Origin: Octopus vulgaris
Taxonomy: Eukaryota
Assembly: GCA_951406725.2 (NCBI GenBank)
Contig: OX597818.1
Span: 51,150,001-51,214,000 of the forward strand
Reading direction: 5' to 3'
DNA length: 64,000 nucleotides
Part shown: positions 624 through 60,467 of the stretch, piece after piece
Numbering within the stretch: the first letter of the stretch is position 1
Layout of the letters: the number at the start of each line of letters is the position of its first letter
Notes under the pieces: model-generated
Told to the model about the DNA's origin: nothing
Databases searched by the model: none
Seen by the model: only the letters and a program-made list of their open reading frames with translations
Program-made: the position numbers and the translations under genes

Positions 624-2363
624 TCTTACTATAATTGGCGTTAAGTCCGTCCGTCCGTCCGTCTGCCCGTCTTTCCGCCTGTCTGTCTTTTCCCTCTTCA
701 CGATCAAACGGCTGAACCAATGGTCCCGATGTTTTTTGGAATTACGAAGGAAGCAATCAGGAAGGGTTTTAGCGAAAAAAATGTGAAAAAGTATAATTAT
801 TTAATGGATATTGAGTTTTGTATTAATAAGTCACCTTTGATTTTTATGTTAAAATTCTGGCGACGAGGATTAAGTCTAGATTTTCTCCCACCCCCACCAT
901 CCGTATAGTTCGTGAATTTAAAAGGTTTAGATTTGCGATACTATCCCTTTATCTCCCACCGTAGATGGGCAGATTTGCCATCTTACCATAATGGGCGTTA
1001 TGTCCGTCTGTCCGTCACTTTGTCTGTTATCTCTTCACTCCAGACGGCTGGACCAATGGTTACGATATTTTTCGGGGTTACAAAGACGGTCGTCAGGAAA
1101 GTTTTTAGCATTAAAAAATCAGAAAGTATGATAATTTCGTGAATATCGATTTTTGAATTGATAAACCACCTTCGCATTTTTATTAAAAATTCATCGATCG
1201 CGAGTAACTCTGGATTTTGATCGTATAGTTTCTTGGCCCCATCGTAGATACGAAGGGGTCGCGAGGATGGTTAATAGCGAAAATAAAATGGAAAAAGTGT
1301 GTGTCAGTATACAGTATTATTGAAGTGGTTGAAATGAGTAGCCGTATTTCGTCTGCCGTTACGTTCTGAGTTCAAATTGCGCCGAGGTTGACTTTGCCTT
1401 TCATCCTTTCGGGGTCGATAAATAAAGTACCAGTTACGCACTGGGGTCGATGTAATTGACTTGATCCCTTTGTCTGTCCTTGTTTGTCCCCTCTATGTTT
1501 AGCCCCTTGTGGGCAATAAAGAAATATATTGAAGCGTATATAGCGTTATTTAGTGGTTATTGAAGTGTATCAGTCTCGAGCAGGATTCGGAACGGCCAGT
1601 CGAAGCGGCTGTTGTTTACATCTCAGTTTTGTCAATCAAAATAATCCATGGTACCAGAACATTCAGACATTATTCGCATAGAACAGTGAGAGGGAAGCCT
1701 AAGTCTGATTTTTTGCAACCCTTAAAATTCCGCTCGCGCATTCACAGCAAACAAGGCATAGAGCCAGACTTCAGACCGTGTAGGTGTATTTTTACCCACT
1801 CCGATGTTTACACACGGTCAGCTATACATCACTGTGAGTGGCGCAACGGACTCCAGTAATTTGAAAATTAGTGTCGACCAAACAGAAAATATCGTCAACA
1901 AAGAAGTTTTGTAATCATATTGATGTTATCGAAAGGAATATGATTCATAATTTAAATAAGGAAATTTGTGGACTTTGAATGTATAGGAGAATAAACAAGC
2001 GTAAAATAATATAAGCAACTAAAATAAAAGCATATCTAAATAACATTGTTTTCTTAATACTTCTTATGTAGTGGCCGAAGGAAGCTCTGGCTTTCATTAG
2101 GAGTGGTCCACATAACCCATTCATGATTGAGAGGCTGGGAACCTATTTCAGTTTGGGAGTGAATCGTCATCACATGTCACTTAGTCGCAAACACATGTCA
2201 TAATAGCTACAACAGAATGCTGTATCACCAACAATAATGGGATTTCTCGAAGACATCACCCAGTAATCTATCCAAGTCCGTTTATACATTTCTCAATACA
2301 TACTGCTGTTGTGACTCCCCTCCCTCATTTTATAACTCCATCGTAGATGGGTAGATTTGCTAG
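624..2363 (+). mobile_element. Non-autonomous Helitron-like element(s), two head-to-tail units (624-980 and 981-2363)
   Basis: Both units start A|TCTTAC(T/C)ATAAT..GTCCGTC..CGGCTG(A/G)ACCAATGG. The 3' end has hairpin CCATC-GTA-GATGG then CTAG|T (2360-2363); a degenerate copy of this end lies at ~955-980. Confidence 0.6.
1335..1526 (+). mobile_element. SINE family B copy (5'-truncated)
   Basis: Matches the ~230-bp repeat (GTTCTGAGTTCAAATTCCGCCGAGGTCGACTTTGCCTTTCATCC...AAAGAAATA) seen more than 10 times in the window. Confidence 0.8.
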
Positions 2364-5085: not shown

Positions 5086-5125
<40 letters not shown>

Positions 5126-5175
5126 GTAGTAGTAGTAGTAGTAGTAGTAATAATAGTAATAATAATAATAATCAA

Positions 5176-5206
<31 letters not shown>

Positions 5207-5283
5207 GTAGTAGTAATAATAATAATAGTAATAATAATAATAATAATAGTAGTAGTAATAGTAATAATAATAATAATAATCAA

Positions 5284-5317
<34 letters not shown>

Positions 5318-5640
5318 GTAGTAGTAGTAGTAATAATAATAATAATAGTAGTAGTAGTAGTAGTAATAATAATAATAGTAGTAGTAGTAATAATAATAAT
5401 AATAATAGTAGTAGTAGTAATAATAATAATAATAATAATAATAGTAGTAGTAGTAGTAGTAATAATAATAATAATAGTAGTAGTAGTAGTAGTAATAATA
5501 ATAATAATAGTAGTAGTAGTAATAATAATAATAGTAATAGTAGTAGTAGTAATAATAATAATAATAATAGTAATAATAATAATAGTAATAATAATAATAA
5601 TAATAGTAGTAGTAGTAGTAATAATAATAATAATAATATA

Positions 5641-5678
<38 letters not shown>

Positions 5679-5985
5679 ATAATAATAATAATAATAGTAG
5701 TAGTAGTAGTAGTAGTAATAATAATAATAATAATAGTAGTAGTAGTAATAATAATAATAATAGTAGTAGTAGTAGTAATAATAATAATAATAATAATAGT
5801 AGTAGTAGTAGTAATAATAATAATAATAATAATAATAATAGTAGTAGTAGTAATAATAATAATAATAATAATAGTAGTAGTAGTAGTAATAATAATAATA
5901 ATAATAATAATAATAGTAGTAGTAGTAGTAGTAGTAATAATAATAATAATAATAATAGTAGTAGTAGTAATAATAATAATAATAA

Positions 5986-6029
<44 letters not shown>

Positions 6030-6048
6030 ATAATAATAATAATAATAA

Positions 6049-6080
<32 letters not shown>

Positions 6081-6120
6081 ATAATAGTAGTAGTAGTAGT
6101 AATAATAATAATAATAATAA

Positions 6121-6152
<32 letters not shown>

Positions 6153-6188
6153 ATAATAATAATAGTAGTAGTAGTAGTAGTAGTAGTA

Positions 6189-6236
<48 letters not shown>

Positions 6237-6261
6237 GTAGTAGTAGTAGTAATAATAATAA
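5083..6261. repeat. Compound (AAT)n/(AGT)n microsatellite, about 1.18 kb
   Basis: Directly visible. Source of the spurious poly-Y/N/L/I/T ORFs. Confidence 0.98.
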
Positions 6262-15926: not shown

Positions 15927-16917
15927 CTGTTAAATTGATAACTTTGGAGCACAGCAAAGCACCGAGACGATCAAGAACCAATACACCGTTTCTTCTCAGT
16001 TGGTCTTTTAGACAAGGGTGAACCACTTTCTGGCAGAATAAAATTCTAATGCCTTTTGATATGAGTTCAGAACAGAATGACTCCATATGAGAAAGAAAGC
16101 TTTGCTCAAGTTCTTTAAGACTGGTACTGGCATAAGTCAACTGAGGTAGCTCTATAGAATCTCCTGCCATGGATACGTTTACTACAACTGTACAAATATT
16201 CTCTAGAGATTCTCTCTGTGTTTGCCATGACAGCACTTCTTTGATGTTTGTAGCCTCAAGCAATAATCCTTCACAACAGAAAGAATTATGTGTTTCTTCA
16301 CCAGGAATGCCAATGATGTGTATATTGTCTAAGATGGGTCTTAAGGAACTGTCCTGTCTTTCAGAAGGAAGGCTTCTAATGAAGGCTTCTAAGAGTACAG
16401 AACTCATCAACTTTAGTAGCTGCTCATCTAGCTGGTACAATGGTTTTGATGACAACATCGTACTGGCCACCTGACACAAAGAATTAACATCAGATATTTC
16501 TACAGCCATTTTACAGGAGAAATCATCTGATTTTAAATAACTAAGAAATAATTCAAGAAGAAAAGAATTTACTTTGGTAATCAACCTATGATCTAAATCA
16601 AGTTTCAAAGCTTTGTCTATCAGAATTAGGATAAAATGAGCCATGAAGAGAGCCCCATCCCCGTAGGTATGTGAATGCTTTGAACAGGCTTCAATTATGA
16701 GTCGTGCTAAAGGATTTGTAGGTCGCAGAGCAGCCAGCAGCCTGGATGATGAACTTGTCAGTGTGACATGACCCCCGCAGTTATTACGCAGTAGCTTAAT
16801 GCCTCCATAAGGGCCAACTGTGGTGGAAAATAAATGCCTAAGGGAATTGAGTTGGTGCACTGTTTCCTTGTCTGTGAGTTTGCCACGTAGGAGTTTAGTT
16901 TCAGTAACTTCCTGCAT
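15927..16917 (-). CDS. MKKS: MKKS/BBS6 coding exon 1 (991 nt); full CDS 991+179+111+471 = 1752 nt, 583 aa
   Basis: ORF with GPYGGIK, GGHVTLTSSSSRLL, GDGALF, SMAGD, CQKVVHPCLK and VLDRLG, all characteristic of MKKS. Acceptor atttcag| at 16934 and donor G|gtaatt at 15926. Confidence 0.95.
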
Positions 16918-16940
16918 TATTCAATTATATACTCTGAAAT

Positions 16941-17000
16941 ATATACAGATATATATATATAGACAGACAGACAGGTAAATATGTGTGCTTGTAAATATAT

Positions 17001-17031
<31 letters not shown>

Positions 17032-17083
17032 CACACACACAAACAGATATATACATATATAGAGACAGAGAGGTATGTATGTA

Positions 17084-17146
<63 letters not shown>

Positions 17147-17275
17147 ATATACATATATACAGACAGAGAGGTATGTATGTATGTAAGTATGTGTGTGTGT
17201 CTGTGTGTATATATATATATACATACACATATAAACACATGAAATATATACACACACATATTATATGCAAATATA
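16941..17275. repeat. Compound (TA)/(CA)/(TG) microsatellite tract
   Basis: Directly visible; gives Y/I/C/V-rich false ORFs. Confidence 0.9.
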
Positions 17276-17529
17276 TGTTTGAAGAAACATTTTCTTAAAT
17301 TAAAAGTTATAAACTATATAGAAAAATCTTTAAAGAACAGAGTTTTTTTTTTTTTTCATATAATTGATAATTTTAATTTAAGAAAATCTTTCTATAAATA
17401 TTGTGAGACAGACAATCTCACGAGTAAAATATACTTTGCAATAATTTTAGCTATATCTGCTACTGTTGTCATACTGCTACAGGTCAATTCTGATTGAGTA
17501 GAGCCATGAGCAGAGATATTCATGGATAT

Positions 17530-17810
17530 ACCAGCGCCGCCTGACTAGCGTCCATGTCGGTGACACATAAAAAGCACCAACCGATTGTGGCCATTTGCCA
17601 GCCTCCTCTGGTCCCTGTGCTGGTGGCATGTAAAAAGCACCCACTACACTCATGGAGTGGTTGGCATTAGGAAGGGCATCCAGCTGTAGAAACATTGCCA
17701 GATCAGATTGGAGCCTGGTGCAGCCTCCTGGCTTCCCAGACCCCGGTCGAACCATCCAACCCATGTTAGCATAGAAAACGGACGTTAAACAATGATGATG
17801 ATGATGATGT
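17530..17810 (+). mobile_element. Family C retroelement copy
   Basis: Shared body and (GAT)n tail. Confidence 0.75.
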
Positions 17811-18412
17811 GATCCTTACATTACCTAAAATGTTTTATTTAATACAGTAGATTGTGATTTGAAGAAGATTCCCTGTTGTTTTCTAGTCTGAGTGACTCCA
17901 TAAAGGTTCCTATGTTGGCTTCTCCTAATATGTATATTAGGGGTTGTCTCTGCTGCTACCTATTACCTCTCTGACACACACCTACCTCCTCCATCATACT
18001 TCAACCTTGCATCCTCTGGAATAAAACCACCTCCCTCGATACTAGTCCCCTCTCAGTTGAGGGGTCATGTCTTGCAAGTTACTTAGTAATCATATCTAGT
18101 GCCATTGCCAGTGGTTGGCATTAAGGAGGGTATCCAGCTGCATCGATATTCATTCTGCATTACTATGTGGTCTGTTAGCCAAATCTATTAGAAGAGCTTT
18201 CTATGATAGCCACACAATTCTCTGAATCCATATCTTATGCTACAAGGAGAACTACACAACCATTTCCACATACAATTTTTAAAAGCCAAGAGGAACAAAA
18301 AATAAAATAAACAATTTTCATTTGCTAATTTATAAAGAATAGTTTTTGAAGATCAGTCCCTGAATACGAGATTAAAGCAATTAAAATATTTTTGAAATTT
18401 GTAACTAACCTG

Positions 18413-18577
18413 TTATTTTGGTGATGATTTAGCAATTCTCTCTTCAGAAGTAGCGATTTTTGGAGTTTTCAATGGATATGTTGCTAAGTACATAACAGAT
18501 GTGATGACTATCAAGGAAACAAACTTGTTGCTATGGGCCCAATTAGCAGCCGACTGGAAAACTGTTCTTAGAGACAT
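18413..18577 (-). CDS. MKKS upstream ORF 2, 54-aa single-TM microprotein, uMKKS2-like (exon 18589-18410)
   Basis: ttcaattctag|GATTTGCCAAAC-ATG...TAA-CAG|gttagt; MSLRTVFQSAANWAHSNKFVSLIVITSVMYLATYPLKTPKIATSEERIAKSSPK*. The W-x3-N-x13-L-A-T-Y-x-L pattern matches recalled human uMKKS2. Confidence 0.72.
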   Translation of the reverse strand: MSLRTVFQSAANWAHSNKFVSLIVITSVMYLATYPLKTPKIATSEERIAKSSPK

Positions 18578-18704
18578 GTTTGGCAAATCCTAGAATTGAA
18601 AAAAAATATATATATAAACTTAATATCAGTGGTGTATAAGATTTCTTAATGCAATTTGATAATTGAGAAGAAACTCTCTGAATAGTTTTCAATGAAATCC
18701 AGAT

Positions 18705-18947
18705 TGGGTACGTAAAAAGCACCAACCGATCGTGGCCGTTGCCAGCCTCGCCTGGCACCTGTGCCGGTGGCATGTAAAAAGCACCCACTACACTCACAGA
18801 GTGGTTGACATTAGAAAGGGCATCCAGCCGTAGAAACACTGCCAGATCAGACTGAGCCTGGTGCAGCCTCCTGGCTTCCCAGACCCCAGTCGAACCGTCC
18901 AACCCATGCTAGCATGGAAAACGGACGTTAAACAATGATGATGATGA
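18705..18947 (+). mobile_element. Family C retroelement copy
   Basis: Shared body and (GAT)n tail. Confidence 0.75.
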
Positions 18948-19509
18948 GATGGCTGTATACTCTTTCCCAGTCTCTTCCTGATTTGGCAACCCTCTCTTCA
19001 AAGAGAAATCATTGACTTAAGAGAATTCATAGGCTGAACAATTATGCAATGCAAACAGAATCTTCATCAAAAACACAAATCATGCACATAAACAGCCCAT
19101 CAACTATCACTGCCAATGGCAAACCACTAGACCAGTCATGGGCAACATTTTACAAGAAGCAGGCTACATGAGACAGGGCTCATCATCAGGTGAGACACAC
19201 TATTATAAAATTCAAGGTAATTATTTTGTTGAAGGTGTCATTCAGAAAGATACGTGGCCTGCGGACTGTAGTTTGTCCATGACTGCACAAGATGATATGG
19301 ATAACCTTAGATACCTAGGAATCCTTATCAACTAAGTTAATGGGGTGGAAACAGACATTCATGCCTAACTTGCCAAAGTTCATTATGAATTCACATCAAA
19401 ATTTTAATGTAATACATTACTAGAATGACTCATTTCATAGCTGCTCCAAAGTGAGTGATTAATTATTTTGTGGTTAGAAAGTAGTAAAGTTGAAATAGTA
19501 GAAATAATT

Positions 19510-20080
19510 TGCATCACCAGTCTGGAACCCCTATCTTGCCCAGGATATTGTCTGGAAACTGTTTAGCGACGTGCAACCAAGACAATACTCTCCATCAGGC
19601 ATTTGCCATATTCTGAATGCCTTACTTCCCTGGGTATGGATACACTGAAACTCCGACGTCTGGCAGCTGACTTGGCAGACACCCATAAAATTATTAACCA
19701 TCTTACTAACAATAACTCTGAGCACCTTTTCAAACTCCACCCATCTAACACCCGTGGGCATGATTACAAAGTCAGAAAACAGTACAGCTCCCATGACTTT
19801 CGGAAACATTTTTTCACGCTAAGAGTTGCTGAAGTATGGAACAAACTGCCATCATCAGTTGTTAGTTGTCGGAGCACTGCATCCTTCAAAACTTCCATGC
19901 TTCCAGAGATTCGCCAACACTACACCTGATTTTCTCCCCTCCATACACACACAAGCATGTATCTGACTCATACATTGTTCACTTTGCAGGCATTTGTACA
20001 TTACTGCATATGCTTTATACACACTTTTGACAAGTTGTGGTGCACCTGAGCACCGTATACAATAATTTCATTATTATTAT
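19510..20080 (+). mobile_element. CR1/L2-type LINE 3' end (ORF2 C-terminus, 3' UTR and ATT tail)
   Basis: ORF 19603-19929 has LKLRRLAADL..HKII..TRGHDYK..RKHFFTLRVAEVWNKLPSSVV, typical of the CR1-clade C-terminus; ends in (ATT)n. Confidence 0.85.
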
Positions 20081-20561
20081 AATTTCTTAAAATACCCTTA
20101 AAATGATGTAAGTCTGGTTACGATAGTTTGTGGATTATCCAGTCATAAAAGATAGATGAGGGTCCCACAACAACTTGCTTAGCAACCATCACAGAGACTA
20201 TTTGCTTGTAGTGCTAAAATGTTCATGTTACATATTAGCTCAGTCCCTCCATCAAATCAACATTACCTGTACAGGTGCATAGTGTGCCAAACATCAGATG
20301 TTGAGGTGACTGCAGAGCTATATGAAATAATGTGGCTTACTCAAGAACACAACACACCACCCAGTCCAGAAATTGAAACCAAGATCTCACAATCATGAGT
20401 ACAGCAGCCTAACCACTAGGCCATGTTCCTTAATAATTTAGCCCTCACTTGATATCAGACAGAAAACAAATTAAACAAAAAAAAAATTTTAAGGAATTGG
20501 GGTTTTTTCCCAATAATTATGACAAACATTAACTTACTTTGGGTAATTTGGAGTTTCTTAT

Positions 20562-20741
20562 TTATTCTTTTGGGGTTTTCTTGATTATTTTTCCCAAAAT
20601 CCCAATCTCTTGTCTTTCAGGCTCAACTAAATCAGGATTAAATTGCATATAGTACCAACCAACATGTACGGCAATTACTGAAGGGATCATAACAAGCAGC
20701 ACCGTGTAATTTTTGGCAAAGGCTTTCAATTGCTTCAACAT
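20562..20741 (-). CDS. MKKS upstream ORF 1, 59-aa single-TM microprotein, uMKKS1-like (exon 20747-20538)
   Basis: ttttctttcttttcag|TTAACA-ATG...TAA...CCCAAA|gtaagt; MLKQLKAFAKNYTVLLVMIPSVIAVHVGWYYMQFNPDLVEPERQEIGILGKIIKKTPKE*. The YxVLxxMxPxVxxxHxGWY pattern matches recalled human uMKKS1. Confidence 0.85.
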   Translation of the reverse strand: MLKQLKAFAKNYTVLLVMIPSVIAVHVGWYYMQFNPDLVEPERQEIGILGKIIKKTPKE

Positions 20742-20868
20742 TGTTAACTGAAAAGAAAGAAAACTTTCTAAATTATTTTATTAAACAATTATCAACTAGC
20801 CTTGCTCTTTCTAACCCTTAATCCTAATGTTCCATCAATGTGTTTAGAGAATTTATGTTATTTAATAG

Positions 20869-23406: not shown

Positions 23407-24009
23407 ATTACCAATAATAATATAGGGTGAAATTAATTAATTTGGAATAATCATCAATTTCACCAAGTAGATTTCGGCATGTAAAAGCCCCATTCAAGGA
23501 GCAAATCGTTGCTAAACCCTTAATTACTTAGTATATATATATATATGTATATATATATATGTATATATATGCCAGTTGAAGTTTCATGGGTTTGATAACT
23601 TTAAAAATGTTCTATTTGCTTCCACACTTCATGTATTTTAACCTCATAAATTCATCAAATCAATTAGGTTTCGCTTCGAAGTCCCTTACAGTCGCAAAGG
23701 TAATTACGTGATCGATCAAACTTTTACTCCGTTCGTTCGTAACACTTCGAGCGAAAAACAAATAGTTTTCAATACATTTCAACATCAACTAAGAGTTTCT
23801 GGAGAAGGCAAGAAACCCATTTACAAAACAAAGCAAATACATGTTAAAACAACACAGAATAAACAATGGAACAACAAGAATTACGAGTCTAAAGTCGAAA
23901 TAAGAGTCGTTTCGAATTACCCTTTCCTCGAAGCTCGTTGCATGGCTGACCTTCCCTCTAAGGGGAGATAACTCTAAGCCCATACTTGAATTTCATTTCT
24001 TCTTGAATC
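22399..24009. promoter_or_regulatory. Putative bidirectional promoter region between the MKKS locus (-) and AGA (+)
   Basis: Head-to-head genes, local CpG enrichment, no SINE insertions, and duplicated with AGA at 50850-52427. TSSs were not located. Confidence 0.45.
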
Positions 24010-57748: not shown

Positions 57749-58447
57749 ACGTAAAAAGCACTATTCGAGCATGATCGTTACCAGAGTCGCCTTACTGGCA
57801 CATGAAAAACTTTCGAGTGAGGTTGTTGCCAGTGCTGCTGGACTGGCTCCTGTGCAGGTGGCATGTAAAAAACACCATTTGAGCGTGGCCATTGCCAGTA
57901 CCACCTGACTGGCCCTCATGCCAGTGGCACATAAAAGCACCCACTACGCTCTCAGAGTGGTTGGCATTAGGAAGAGCATCCAGCTGTAGAAACTCTGCCA
58001 GATCAAGATTGCAGCCTGGTGAAGCCACCTGGTGAAGCCACCTGGTGAAGCCAGTTCTCAGTCAAATCTTCCAACCCATGGAAAGTGGACATTAAACGAT
58101 GTTGATGATGATATATTGATTCAAGATCTAACTTGATTGTACTAATCAACATTTATAGCTACCTATTTTGCTCTTTATGCCACCTCAGGAAGTGCTTGGT
58201 TACAGCTACATCATAAATGGATGCACCCTATTAATGACAAAGAATATGACCAAACCATGAAGGGCTGATGAAGGGTTGGAGGAGGTAACAGATTGGGATG
58301 TATGGGTAGTGATAGTGGTAAGTATCTCTGATGTCTATTCAGTGAGAAGTGATGACAGGGGAGTAACTGTAATGTCTGTTGGGAGTGGTACTAGAAGATA
58401 ACAGCAATGACCCTTTCTCTCAGTTTTTTTTTTAATCTGTTTTAAAG

Positions 58448-58607
58448 CTTGGAGTGTGATCAACAATAAAGGAAGATCTGCTTTAGATGCTGTTGAGCAA
58501 GGATGCTCCATGTGTGACGTGTATCGACAATGCGGATCAAGTGTTGGATATGGTGGATCACCTGATGAAAATGGAGAAACAACTCTCGATGCAATGATAA
58601 TGGATGG
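58448..58607 (+). CDS. AGA: AGA copy 2, exon 2
   Basis: [54 protein letters not shown]; 160 nt, frame preserved. Confidence 0.95.
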
Positions 58608-59439
58608 GTAACATGCTTTATATTTCAACTAATATTCCTTTCTATGTATCATCATCATCATCATCATTATCGTTTAATATCTGATTTCCATGCTAGCATG
58701 GGTTGGACAGTTCAACTGGGGTCTGGGAAGCCAGGAGGCTGCACCAGGCTCCAGTCTGATCTGGCAGTGTTTTTACAGCTGGATGCCCTTCCTAACGCCA
58801 ACCATTCCATGAGTGTAGTGGGTGCTTTTTATGTGCCACCAGCACAGGGGCCAGAGGAGGCTGGCAATGGCCACGATCAGTTGGTGCTTTTTACATGCCA
58901 CCGGCATGGAAGCCAGTCAAGGCGGCGCTGGCATCAGCCATGTTCAGATGGTGCTTTTTATGTGCCACCAACACGGGTATCACCACAACAATTTCCATTG
59001 ATTTTCATTTTGATGTTGATGTATCAGAGTTGATAATATCATTTGTTACATGCATAAACAAACTGGAACTTAAATATTCGTCCCATACATAAGATTTCGT
59101 ATTGATCGTCATATGGGTGATAATTACAGATTGTCACATGTCACACCATGCAATTCATCTCAATATGTCACAGTCTGAACATGTACCTCGGAGGGGAACT
59201 TTATTGGTGCAATTCCATAGTCATTCACGACCGAAAGGGGTCTTTTACCTTATCCAGAGATGCATTATCCAATGTATCTGTGCCATTTTCAATATGACAA
59301 TTAAGGTGTGATTTGAGGGAGATTTGACTGCTATTTGAAACAGATCGGACAACTTTACAGAGTCTTCAGTATCAGTTGGTAGTCAATGGAAGTGGAATTT
59401 TGAAATATAAATTTATAAAATTCCAGACCTTGCTTCCAC

Positions 59440-59706
59440 ACCTGAAATTTCTTCTCTAGTTCTGGTAGTGATTCAGCAATAAGAACAAGGTAATCAGCAT
59501 AGAGGAGCTCCTAAGGGTAGCCAGTCTTAAATTCCTCAGTTATAGCTTGGAAGACCATGATAAATAAAAGGAGGCTAAGAACCAAACCTTGGTGAATGCC
59601 TACTTGTACAATAAACTCCTTGCTATATTCAATTGTGACTAACCACTCATCTATCCTTAGTTTTTGCATTGCCCATTAGATAAGGGAGTGGGGTCCCTAT
59701 CAAAGG
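59440..59706 (-). mobile_element. RTE-clade LINE reverse transcriptase fragment (degraded)
   Basis: Minus strand VQVGIHQGLVLSLLLFIMV...ELLYADYLVLIAES (QG motif and decayed YADD) with a stop. Confidence 0.75.
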
Positions 59707-60192
59707 CTGTAGAAACTCTGCCAGATCAGATTGGAGCCTGGTGTAGCCATCTGGTTCGCCAGCCCTCAGTCAAAATCGTCCAACCCATGCTAGCATGGAA
59801 AACGTACATTAAACGATGATGATGATGATGATGATGTATTTATCTCAAGAAATAGCTACATTTCTTTCTTTAACATTTTACATTGTCCAGCCTACACAAA
59901 AAAATGTGTGATAGACAAAATAGAAATTTTTAAAGAAGTATCCATAAAAGTTTTGTTGACCCTACCATATTCGATTGGCTACGGGGTCCACCAGACTTTA
60001 AAAAAAATCAAAGGGATTTATATATGAAAAACAAAATGGTTCAAAACCACTACTCTGGCCAAGATATTGTACCATGCAATAGACCTGGAGCAAAATGAAA
60101 TTCTTAATCCTAAGAAATGAACTTCTTAATCATAAAACCATGCCTTTTTACAAATGCACAATTAGTTTATATATTTTTCATCAATTTTGTAG

Positions 60193-60305
60193 AATCACTC
60201 ATTCTGTTGGAGCAGTTGGTGGCCTGAAAAGGGTCAAGTCAGCAATATCTGTGGCCCGTGCAGTGATGAAATATACTGAGCATACACTGCTTGTTGGAGA
60301 TGCAG
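60193..60305 (+). CDS. AGA: AGA copy 2, exon 3
   Basis: [37 protein letters not shown]; AG/GT intact, 113 nt. Confidence 0.95.
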
Positions 60306-60467
60306 GTAAAATTACTAAATTAAGAATCAATGTTGTTCTTTGTTCATCAGATATTTTATATTAATAATATTCCAATGTTACGGAGATGTACTTGCATAGC
60401 AAGTGACCTGATCTGAGATCATCTACTGGGACGAAAACAATTTCAGCATGGAAGGTGTTTATAAGCC

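Follow-up and report, generated by a model that had tools for sequence, protein, structure and literature searches.

The locus described here lies in a 64,000-nucleotide (nt) stretch of the Octopus vulgaris genome (assembly GCA_951406725.2, contig OX597818.1, positions 51,150,001 to 51,214,000), which we call the window and by whose numbering all features are given. Its minus strand carries two small open reading frames (ORFs), ORF1 and ORF2, each in an exon of its own, and downstream of them an MKKS-like chaperonin gene. A sequence-only reading of the window had proposed that the three belong to one tricistronic gene related to the human MKKS locus. That locus encodes uMKKS0, uMKKS1 (63 amino acids (aa), Q9HB66, LOC128706665, "micro-MKKS63"), uMKKS2 (50 aa, V9GZ13) and MKKS/BBS6 (Akimoto 2013 as summarised in PMC11837024; PMC13577902). 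The human upstream ORFs (uORFs) repress MKKS, and the uMKKS peptides are mitochondrial.

The ORF1 exon spans 20747-20538 (210 nt, flanks ttttcag and gtaagt) and contains ORF1 at 20741-20562 (59 aa). The ORF2 exon spans 18589-18410 (180 nt, flanks ttctag and gttagt) and contains ORF2 at 18577-18413 (54 aa). The MKKS start exon follows an AG, its first base being 16933, and has its ATG at 16917. The ATGs of ORF1, ORF2 and MKKS all have A at -3, and in a spliced message ORF1 and ORF2 would be 36 nt apart, with 19 nt between ORF2 and the MKKS ATG. Each small ORF encodes one hydrophobic stretch (best 19-residue Kyte-Doolittle mean 1.77 for ORF1 and 1.49 for ORF2) with a basic N-side, and a model places a single membrane helix at residues 13-33 of ORF1. 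The exons, the two small ORFs with their lengths and A at -3, the spacers and one hydrophobic segment per peptide had been given in the sequence-only reading, and all of the coordinates hold. Base shuffles of the exons yield a comparable ORF in 30 of 20,000 trials for the ORF1 exon and 33 of 20,000 for the ORF2 exon. Since ORF1 and ORF2 each have only one match in the 2.8 Gb genome, the spliced contigs described below are unlikely to derive from retrocopies.

The downstream gene has four coding exons, set by splice sites and open frame: the start exon (16933-15927, 1007 nt, of which 991 are coding), exon 2 (14140-13962, 179 nt), exon 3 (9172-9062, 111 nt; weak Cpn60_TCP1 match, profile 355-387, E 0.053) and the last exon to the stop (5062-4592, 471 nt; without a Pfam match by itself). 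The model encodes 583 aa. The human MKKS coding exons are 985, 176, 111 and 441 nt long. The long ORF matches Pfam Cpn60_TCP1 at E 1.8e-36, and its best PDB match reaches only E 4e-12. The chaperonin motif is degenerate, with GDGAL in place of GDGTT; Gly-Pro is kept and Gly-Asp-Gly-Thr altered, as in a divergent group II chaperonin by the criteria for MKKS/BBS6 in PMC2846930. Table 1 of that paper gives human MKKS four coding exons (570 aa), BBS10 two (723 aa), BBS12 one (710 aa) and the CCTs mostly 12-15. Pfam match, motif, and exon count and length thus indicate an MKKS-like gene for a divergent chaperonin, in agreement with the earlier proposal. An (AAT/AGT)n array of 1.18 kb (5086-6261) ends about 24 nt ahead of the acceptor of the last exon.

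By profile and pairwise comparison, ORF1 is homologous to human uMKKS1. A phmmer search of 1.84 billion representatives gave 20 hits at E <= 0.001, with a flea protein among the direct hits. Fifteen were aligned with ORF1, leaving out P0001 (a chimeric self-match), P0009, P0013 and P0019 (long and repetitive) and P0016 (a near copy of P0015). The resulting profile had 40 hits among 207 candidates, including "LOC128706665 homolog" proteins of Talpa and Marmota (E ~1e-7) and proteins of fish, Nucella and Lamellibrachia. Cluster look-up returned the flea protein and human Q9HB66, "Alternative protein MKKS", which is LOC128706665. With a 22-row profile free of vertebrate rows, 11 of 11 vertebrate proteins scored 36.8-46.4 bits (human 45.8), and the maximum over 10,000 shuffles was 13.9; the unnamed rows of this profile were assigned as non-vertebrate by judgement, and a tree splits the two sets at 100/99. 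In direct comparison ORF1 and human uMKKS1 are 36% identical over 42 aa (E 2e-10), a score reached by none of 5,000 block shuffles. The top ESM Atlas cluster for ORF1 is rich in arthropods (0.95) and the next is "LOC128706665 homolog" (0.93); likeness to UQCC5 is weak (0.84, under the lead mark of 0.9). ORF1 also fits the traits of the family, namely about 60 aa, a basic N-terminus and a single hydrophobic helix ending in H-x-x-W. His26 and Trp29, which close the predicted helix, are invariant in 47 of 47 rows. The match to uMKKS1 had been proposed in the sequence-only reading from a stretch of human sequence that differs from the record (P0056) at one residue; profile, Atlas, cluster and pairwise results all bear the match out.

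ORF1 appears to be under selection at the protein level, since each of the 6 pairs among four DNA sequences, compared over 33 codons, has pS (0.65-0.91) above pN (0.12-0.41). Between related organism C and the window, the ORF exons differ at 1 of 390 nt and the 5' exon used by that organism at 18 of 659 (P 0.003). Several searches gave nothing further. A single-sequence word search with ORF1 returned only P0001, a chimeric O. vulgaris gene model of 79 aa that is identical to ORF1 over 27 residues. Pfam holds no family for ORF1, ORF2, P0056 or the Nucella model P0033; PDB sequence searches with the ORF1 and ORF2 profiles gave chance matches only (E 0.34 and 0.82); the search of viral contigs returned 0 loci; and in trees of 47 and 31 rows octopus ORF1 falls in no supported group.

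ORF2, judged by its gastropod matches, is a conserved mollusc protein. The Nucella lapillus model P0033 (125 aa) is a fusion of an ORF1 homologue followed by an ORF2 homologue, in the same order as in octopus, and its second half is 42% identical to ORF2 (E 4e-13). A second homologue, P0063 (49% identity), is near the Nucella copy. The ORF2 differences in organisms A and B are both synonymous, and organism C has none. A second hydrophobic ORF of about 50 aa is thus present in octopus between the uMKKS1 homologue and the MKKS start, and both human uORFs are listed on one transcript in a paper supplement. ORF2, its gastropod copies and human uMKKS2 also have in common the register W-x3-N...[YH][LI][AG]T, which is suggestive, though picked post hoc. 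On position, size and topology we consider ORF2 a probable orthologue of uMKKS2. ORF2 was also considered as a paralogue of ORF1, which the mismatch of the two profiles (hhalign E 0.79; -0.8 bits) does not support. In a separate comparison by eye, human uMKKS1 (P0056) and uMKKS2 both carry H-L-G-x-Y at the end of the hydrophobic segment, which hints at an old tandem duplication; the mollusc profiles lack this motif. A complex prediction of ORF1 with ORF2, made without alignments, scored 0.02 and is evidence in neither direction.

Transcript evidence comes from contigs of 4 of 24 listed runs, which represent four studies and three organisms; we take them as RNA, supported by their spliced joints. 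The joint between the ORF1 and ORF2 exons (20538^18589) occurs in one contig per run, in 4 of 4 runs. In runs X5, X14 and X15 a first exon (about 23950 to 23921) is joined to the ORF1 exon by 23921^20747 with 30, 28 and 26 nt on its side; P0001 uses the same junction. The fourth run, X20, from organism C, uses instead an alternative first exon at 22810-22146 (joint 22146^20747). At 23943 the first exon has an ATG whose uORF, 8 codons long, continues across the splice and ends 2 nt ahead of the ORF1 ATG. An in-frame ATG at 23983 was considered as the start of an N-terminally extended ORF1, as in P0001, and is disfavoured: contigs reach only 23946-23950 in the 3 of 3 runs with that exon, yet contigs cannot show a start. 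Two sites differ from the window in all four runs, 20588 (Ile52Leu in ORF1) and 16386 (Ala178Thr in MKKS), and are either private alleles or assembly errors.

The contigs also bear on how ORF2 is connected to MKKS. In 4 of 4 runs the ORF contig terminates exactly at 18410, and the contig of the MKKS start exon is 1061 nt long, made of 30 extra 5' letters, the 1007 nt of the exon and a 24-letter tail. We simulated assembly graphs with 31-letter words, taken as the Logan word length. Among 11 isoform sets, only one, the full isoform together with one that skips the MKKS start exon, reproduces 30/1007/24. When sets of up to three among 31 events were simulated, 277 of 4,991 fit, and skipping of the MKKS start exon is in all 277. 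In addition, of the donors between 14140 and 24100, 18410 alone has exactly six final letters in common with the skipped exon. All simulated models presuppose the full isoform; an unlinked origin of the 30-letter head would need further coincidences. The geometry strongly implies a tricistronic messenger RNA (mRNA) through 18410^16933. It likewise points strongly to a second isoform, 18410^14140, in which the acceptor of exon 2 is used directly, both microprotein ORFs are kept and the MKKS start is lost, so that the MKKS start exon would be a cassette exon and donor 18410 the branch point. This isoform, the first exon with its 8-codon uORF and the alternative first exon were all absent from the sequence-only reading.

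Inclusion of the MKKS start exon, estimated from contig depth, is 0.57, 0.55, 0.36 and 0.74 in the four runs, although depth measures this poorly. Because stops lie upstream of several of its junctions, the skipping isoform should be a decay target unless it is protected by reinitiation at an ATG that lies in frame, 75 nt into the next exon. Read-through or polyadenylation after the ORF2 exon was rejected as the sole cause of the branch, as it predicts a contig of 1,990 nt; it could occur in addition. A compound TA/CA microsatellite (16945-17252) lies directly ahead of the acceptor of the skipped exon and may play a role in skipping. No branch-like motif was found within 60 nt of that acceptor, and the same is true of the last exon.

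ORF1 homologues in other lineages show that the partner of this peptide varies. A metagenome scan with an ORF1 pattern matched 32 stretches and returned 10 loci, of which three (L001-L003) hold true homologues; the other seven (L004-L010) were discarded as pattern-picked matches of 12-18 residues at 17-21 bits. L001-L003 are intronless, transcript-like contigs, apparently animal transcripts. Each has the ORF1 homologue 5' and a J-domain protein of 248-259 aa beginning 28, 14 and 56 nt downstream, respectively; the bicistrons span L001:60-1059, L002:69-1054 and L003:18-1021. The J-proteins, which we take to be DNAJC4-like, have an N-terminus that is basic and poor in acidic residues and, at the C-terminus, a hydrophobic helix, and their best PDB match is mitochondrial DNAJA3. 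They are only 38-51% identical to one another, so the bicistron itself must be old. Their ORF1-type peptides group with rows nearly identical to a Lamellibrachia protein (95/84 in one tree, only 80/76 in the other), and an annelid source is probable. No MKKS match was found in any of the ten metagenome loci, and ORF2 was not found in L001-L003. The closest octopus J-protein gene, on another contig (C6), has no ORF1 or ORF2 copy in 40 kb (best 8 bits). This bicistron of a uMKKS1 homologue and a membrane J-protein of mitochondrial type is conserved and apparently undescribed. Two further observations belong here. At L001:~1370-1838 (minus strand), inspection by eye shows the 3' end overlapping an opposite-strand WD40 gene, presumably PLRG1-like, in the part that codes for its C-terminus, so that the contig merges convergent transcripts. 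Drosophila DnaJ-60, considered because it might lie downstream of a small ORF, proved not to be a parallel: in the FlyBase table it is dicistronic with CG42568 but apparently takes the 5' position, and an ORF under 60 aa is not flagged.

An ORF1-family peptide is also found in the flea, and the insect proteomes surveyed lack BBS6. We conclude that the pairing of ORF1 with MKKS is old but not obligatory. Because mollusc and vertebrates share it, parsimony favours the MKKS arrangement as ancestral and the J-protein as a later swap. The earlier claim that the order of the three genes dates to the bilaterian ancestor is likely, tempered by the J-domain partner in the other ORF1 loci and by the flea peptide. 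The claimed link between the two peptides and a BBSome chaperone fares less well: given the J-protein partners and a flea peptide where the surveyed insects have no BBS6, it would be a regulatory and historical link only, with no evidence that the peptides work with the chaperone.

We favor, as somewhat likelier than not, the interpretation that octopus has here the equivalent of the human polycistronic MKKS locus, passed down from the bilaterian ancestor, with the peptides as main products and MKKS as a low-dose passenger. Several results weigh against it. The decisive joint 18410^16933 is in no read or contig row listed, the adjoining microsatellite (16935-17239) having been skipped in the alignment and rows there dropped, and contigs are unable to show one continuous molecule; thus, of the tricistronic transcript first proposed, the half joining ORF1 and ORF2 is spliced in every run and the half reaching MKKS comes from contig geometry. 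None of the three fetched ORF1 loci has MKKS downstream and all three carry the J-domain gene. The ORF exons and the MKKS exon differ in substitution only at P 0.053. The leader has seven ATGs ahead of the MKKS start, where 7.75 are expected, and this lack of depletion speaks against efficient leaky scanning. For ORF2, only one homologue beyond Nucella was found (P0063), it has no ESM Atlas or Pfam match, and searches for its homologues gave no vertebrate match. Compared by eye with human uMKKS2 (sequence from a paper supplement), it is identical at 6 of 24 residues without gaps; scored by hand with BLOSUM62 this gives about 20 (E ~0.6), which is not significant. ORF2 resembles uMKKS2 in slot, size and topology, and the homology in sequence first claimed is not established. 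Finally, octopus ORF2 has its own exon and would be retained on skipping, whereas the human short isoforms are said to encode the 63-aa peptide only (PMC13577902).

The ORF2 figures are the main support for a reading in which the ORF1-MKKS link is ancestral and ORF2 is not uMKKS2, molluscs and vertebrates having each gained a second small membrane ORF in one slot by insertion, de novo or by duplication of ORF1. Besides the few identities, the three mollusc-type ORF2s are invariant at 11 columns of that stretch, of which human matches 3 exactly, and the ESM Atlas search with ORF2 gave no vertebrate cluster. Paralogy is faintly hinted at as well, since ORF2 against human uMKKS1 scores 35, reached by 5 of 2,000 shuffles. 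However, two other ORF1 homologues are at chance against ORF2 (1,352 and 1,387 of 2,000), the profiles mismatch, and ORF2 and uMKKS2 have the slot, the size (54 and 50 aa), the single hydrophobic segment and the register in common. We therefore regard independent gain as a minority possibility. We think it unlikely that the MKKS link arose twice or that there is no single mRNA, with a uMKKS1 gene prone to capturing the genes behind it having taken up MKKS separately in vertebrates and in cephalopods, or octopus MKKS lying downstream under its own promoter. The different partner in every fetched locus and the unlisted joint 18410^16933 would fit such a case, and the literature describes read-through "gene symbiosis" as one way in which bicistrons form (PMC13303939). 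Yet a double capture of the same rare gene would be improbable, and the 30 extra letters and 24-letter tail in every run are the signature of a bubble opening at 18410.

Two further explanations concern function. The order has apparently been maintained for over 500 million years, as might be expected of a functional operon in which the peptides and MKKS are co-expressed because they serve one pathway, ciliary or centrosomal, and stay linked for the sake of stoichiometry. This fits poorly with human peptides that are mitochondrial and an MKKS that is centrosomal, with the decoupled expression of peptide and MKKS in human brain (r 0.15; PMC13577902), with the flea that keeps the peptide where surveyed insects lack BBS6, and with the roughly quarter to two-thirds of contig depth, a poor measure, that bypasses the MKKS exon. 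We consider an operon of this kind very improbable. Lower still do we rate the idea that ORF1 and ORF2 are only cis-acting translation brakes whose peptides have no function. The human MKKS uORF does repress in a sequence-dependent manner (PMC7530721), which could itself conserve a peptide sequence, but the sequence is also conserved ahead of an unrelated gene and in an insect, the invariant His26 and Trp29 terminate a membrane helix, and the human peptide is abundant and required for respiration (PMC13577902).

Returning to an octopus counterpart of the human locus, we suggest the following course of events. One precursor would run from the first exon through the ORF1 exon to the ORF2 exon, joints seen in the contigs, and then very probably branch at donor 18410. 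Inclusion of the 1007-nt exon would give the tricistronic mRNA, and skipping would give a message for both microproteins without an MKKS start. Ribosomes would meet the cap-near 8-codon uORF, then ORF1 and ORF2, so that two single-pass membrane peptides would be the main products. Translation and mitochondrial location of the octopus peptides, and repression of MKKS by the uORFs, are presumed by analogy with human. In human, the 63-aa peptide dominates the output of the locus, its knockout lowers respiration, three of seven isoforms lack the main ORF, and in brain the peptide exceeds MKKS by orders of magnitude (PMC13577902); uMKKS1 also has a predicted link to complex IV. The octopus peptides would most likely act in assembly of the respiratory chain (complex IV), with ORF2 as a diverged uMKKS2 orthologue. 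Only the including isoform would yield MKKS, and only by leaky scanning or reinitiation, which would hold its dose low at two levels. Since seven ATGs precede its start, little MKKS should be made, as is the case in human brain. The shared message would then be a regulatory cohabitation, in which the peptide is independent of MKKS and in some animals shares its message with another gene. A more far-reaching version, which we hold only tentatively, is that a mitochondrial peptide of respiratory assembly has in the uMKKS1 exon an ancient, pan-bilaterian host cistron that carries low-dose passengers. The second peptide and MKKS would have been present, with the same include/skip switch, since the protostome-deuterostome split, and a probable annelid swap would have brought in the membrane J-protein, maybe as a real functional partner.

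Next to this locus, an Asparaginase_2 gene occupies 24010 to ~43500 on the plus strand, which we take to be aspartylglucosaminidase-like. It stands head-to-head with the MKKS gene, starting only about 60 nt from the first exon, and a bidirectional promoter is suggested by this short distance. The Asparaginase_2 exons recur as a second set (~58400-60400, plus strand), which points to a tandem duplicate.

Recent work has shown that human uMKKS1 is the chief product of a ciliopathy locus and that respiration requires it (PMC13577902). Its conservation has been described for mammals or vertebrates. A family that extends across molluscs, annelids and insects offers His26 and Trp29 for mutation, a deep alignment from which to predict partners, and models among invertebrates, including insects apparently without MKKS. 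If our interpretation is true, a tricistronic animal mRNA has persisted since the bilaterian ancestor, far older than the vertebrate STREMI-SLC35A4 pair, and the partner swap makes "gene symbiosis" testable. The failure of annotation also recurs: the Octopus (P0001, 79 aa) and Nucella (P0033, 125 aa) models fuse the small ORFs into chimeras, hiding both microproteins.

The closest known system is the human MKKS locus. Both loci have a tiny uORF (that of the octopus first exon recalls uMKKS0), uMKKS1 or its homologue, a second hydrophobic ORF of about 50 aa and an MKKS with four coding exons. In both, and in octopus by our reconstruction, the junction ahead of the MKKS start exon is where isoforms that lack the main ORF diverge. 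In human, shortening also occurs by polyadenylation in the leader. The arrangement also resembles the mitochondrial proteins encoded by uORFs (STREMI-SLC35A4, MIURF-MIEF1, PYURF-PIGY as well as ASDURF-ASNSD1; PMC13303939), where an independent protein gene sits as a uORF ahead of an unrelated gene and throttles it. MKKS is absent from the text of that paper, and in its supplements appears only in an RNA-seq table. STREMI and SLC35A4 were joined in jawed vertebrates and the downstream ORF is intronless, whereas the octopus union looks bilaterian and comprises two peptides and an intron-containing downstream gene, with a different partner in another lineage. The Drosophila sloth1-sloth2 bicistron (PMC9681215) likewise has two small conserved peptides on one transcript and a tie to a respiratory complex, but it lacks a third, long ORF and is not of the ORF1 family. 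We found no report of MKKS uORFs outside vertebrates in the accessible literature, with subscription titles mostly beyond reach, and the range of MKKS uORFs in PMC7530721 may include invertebrates. With a splice switch and a partner swap that we have not found described, the octopus locus stands as a deep-branching addition to the known MKKS locus.

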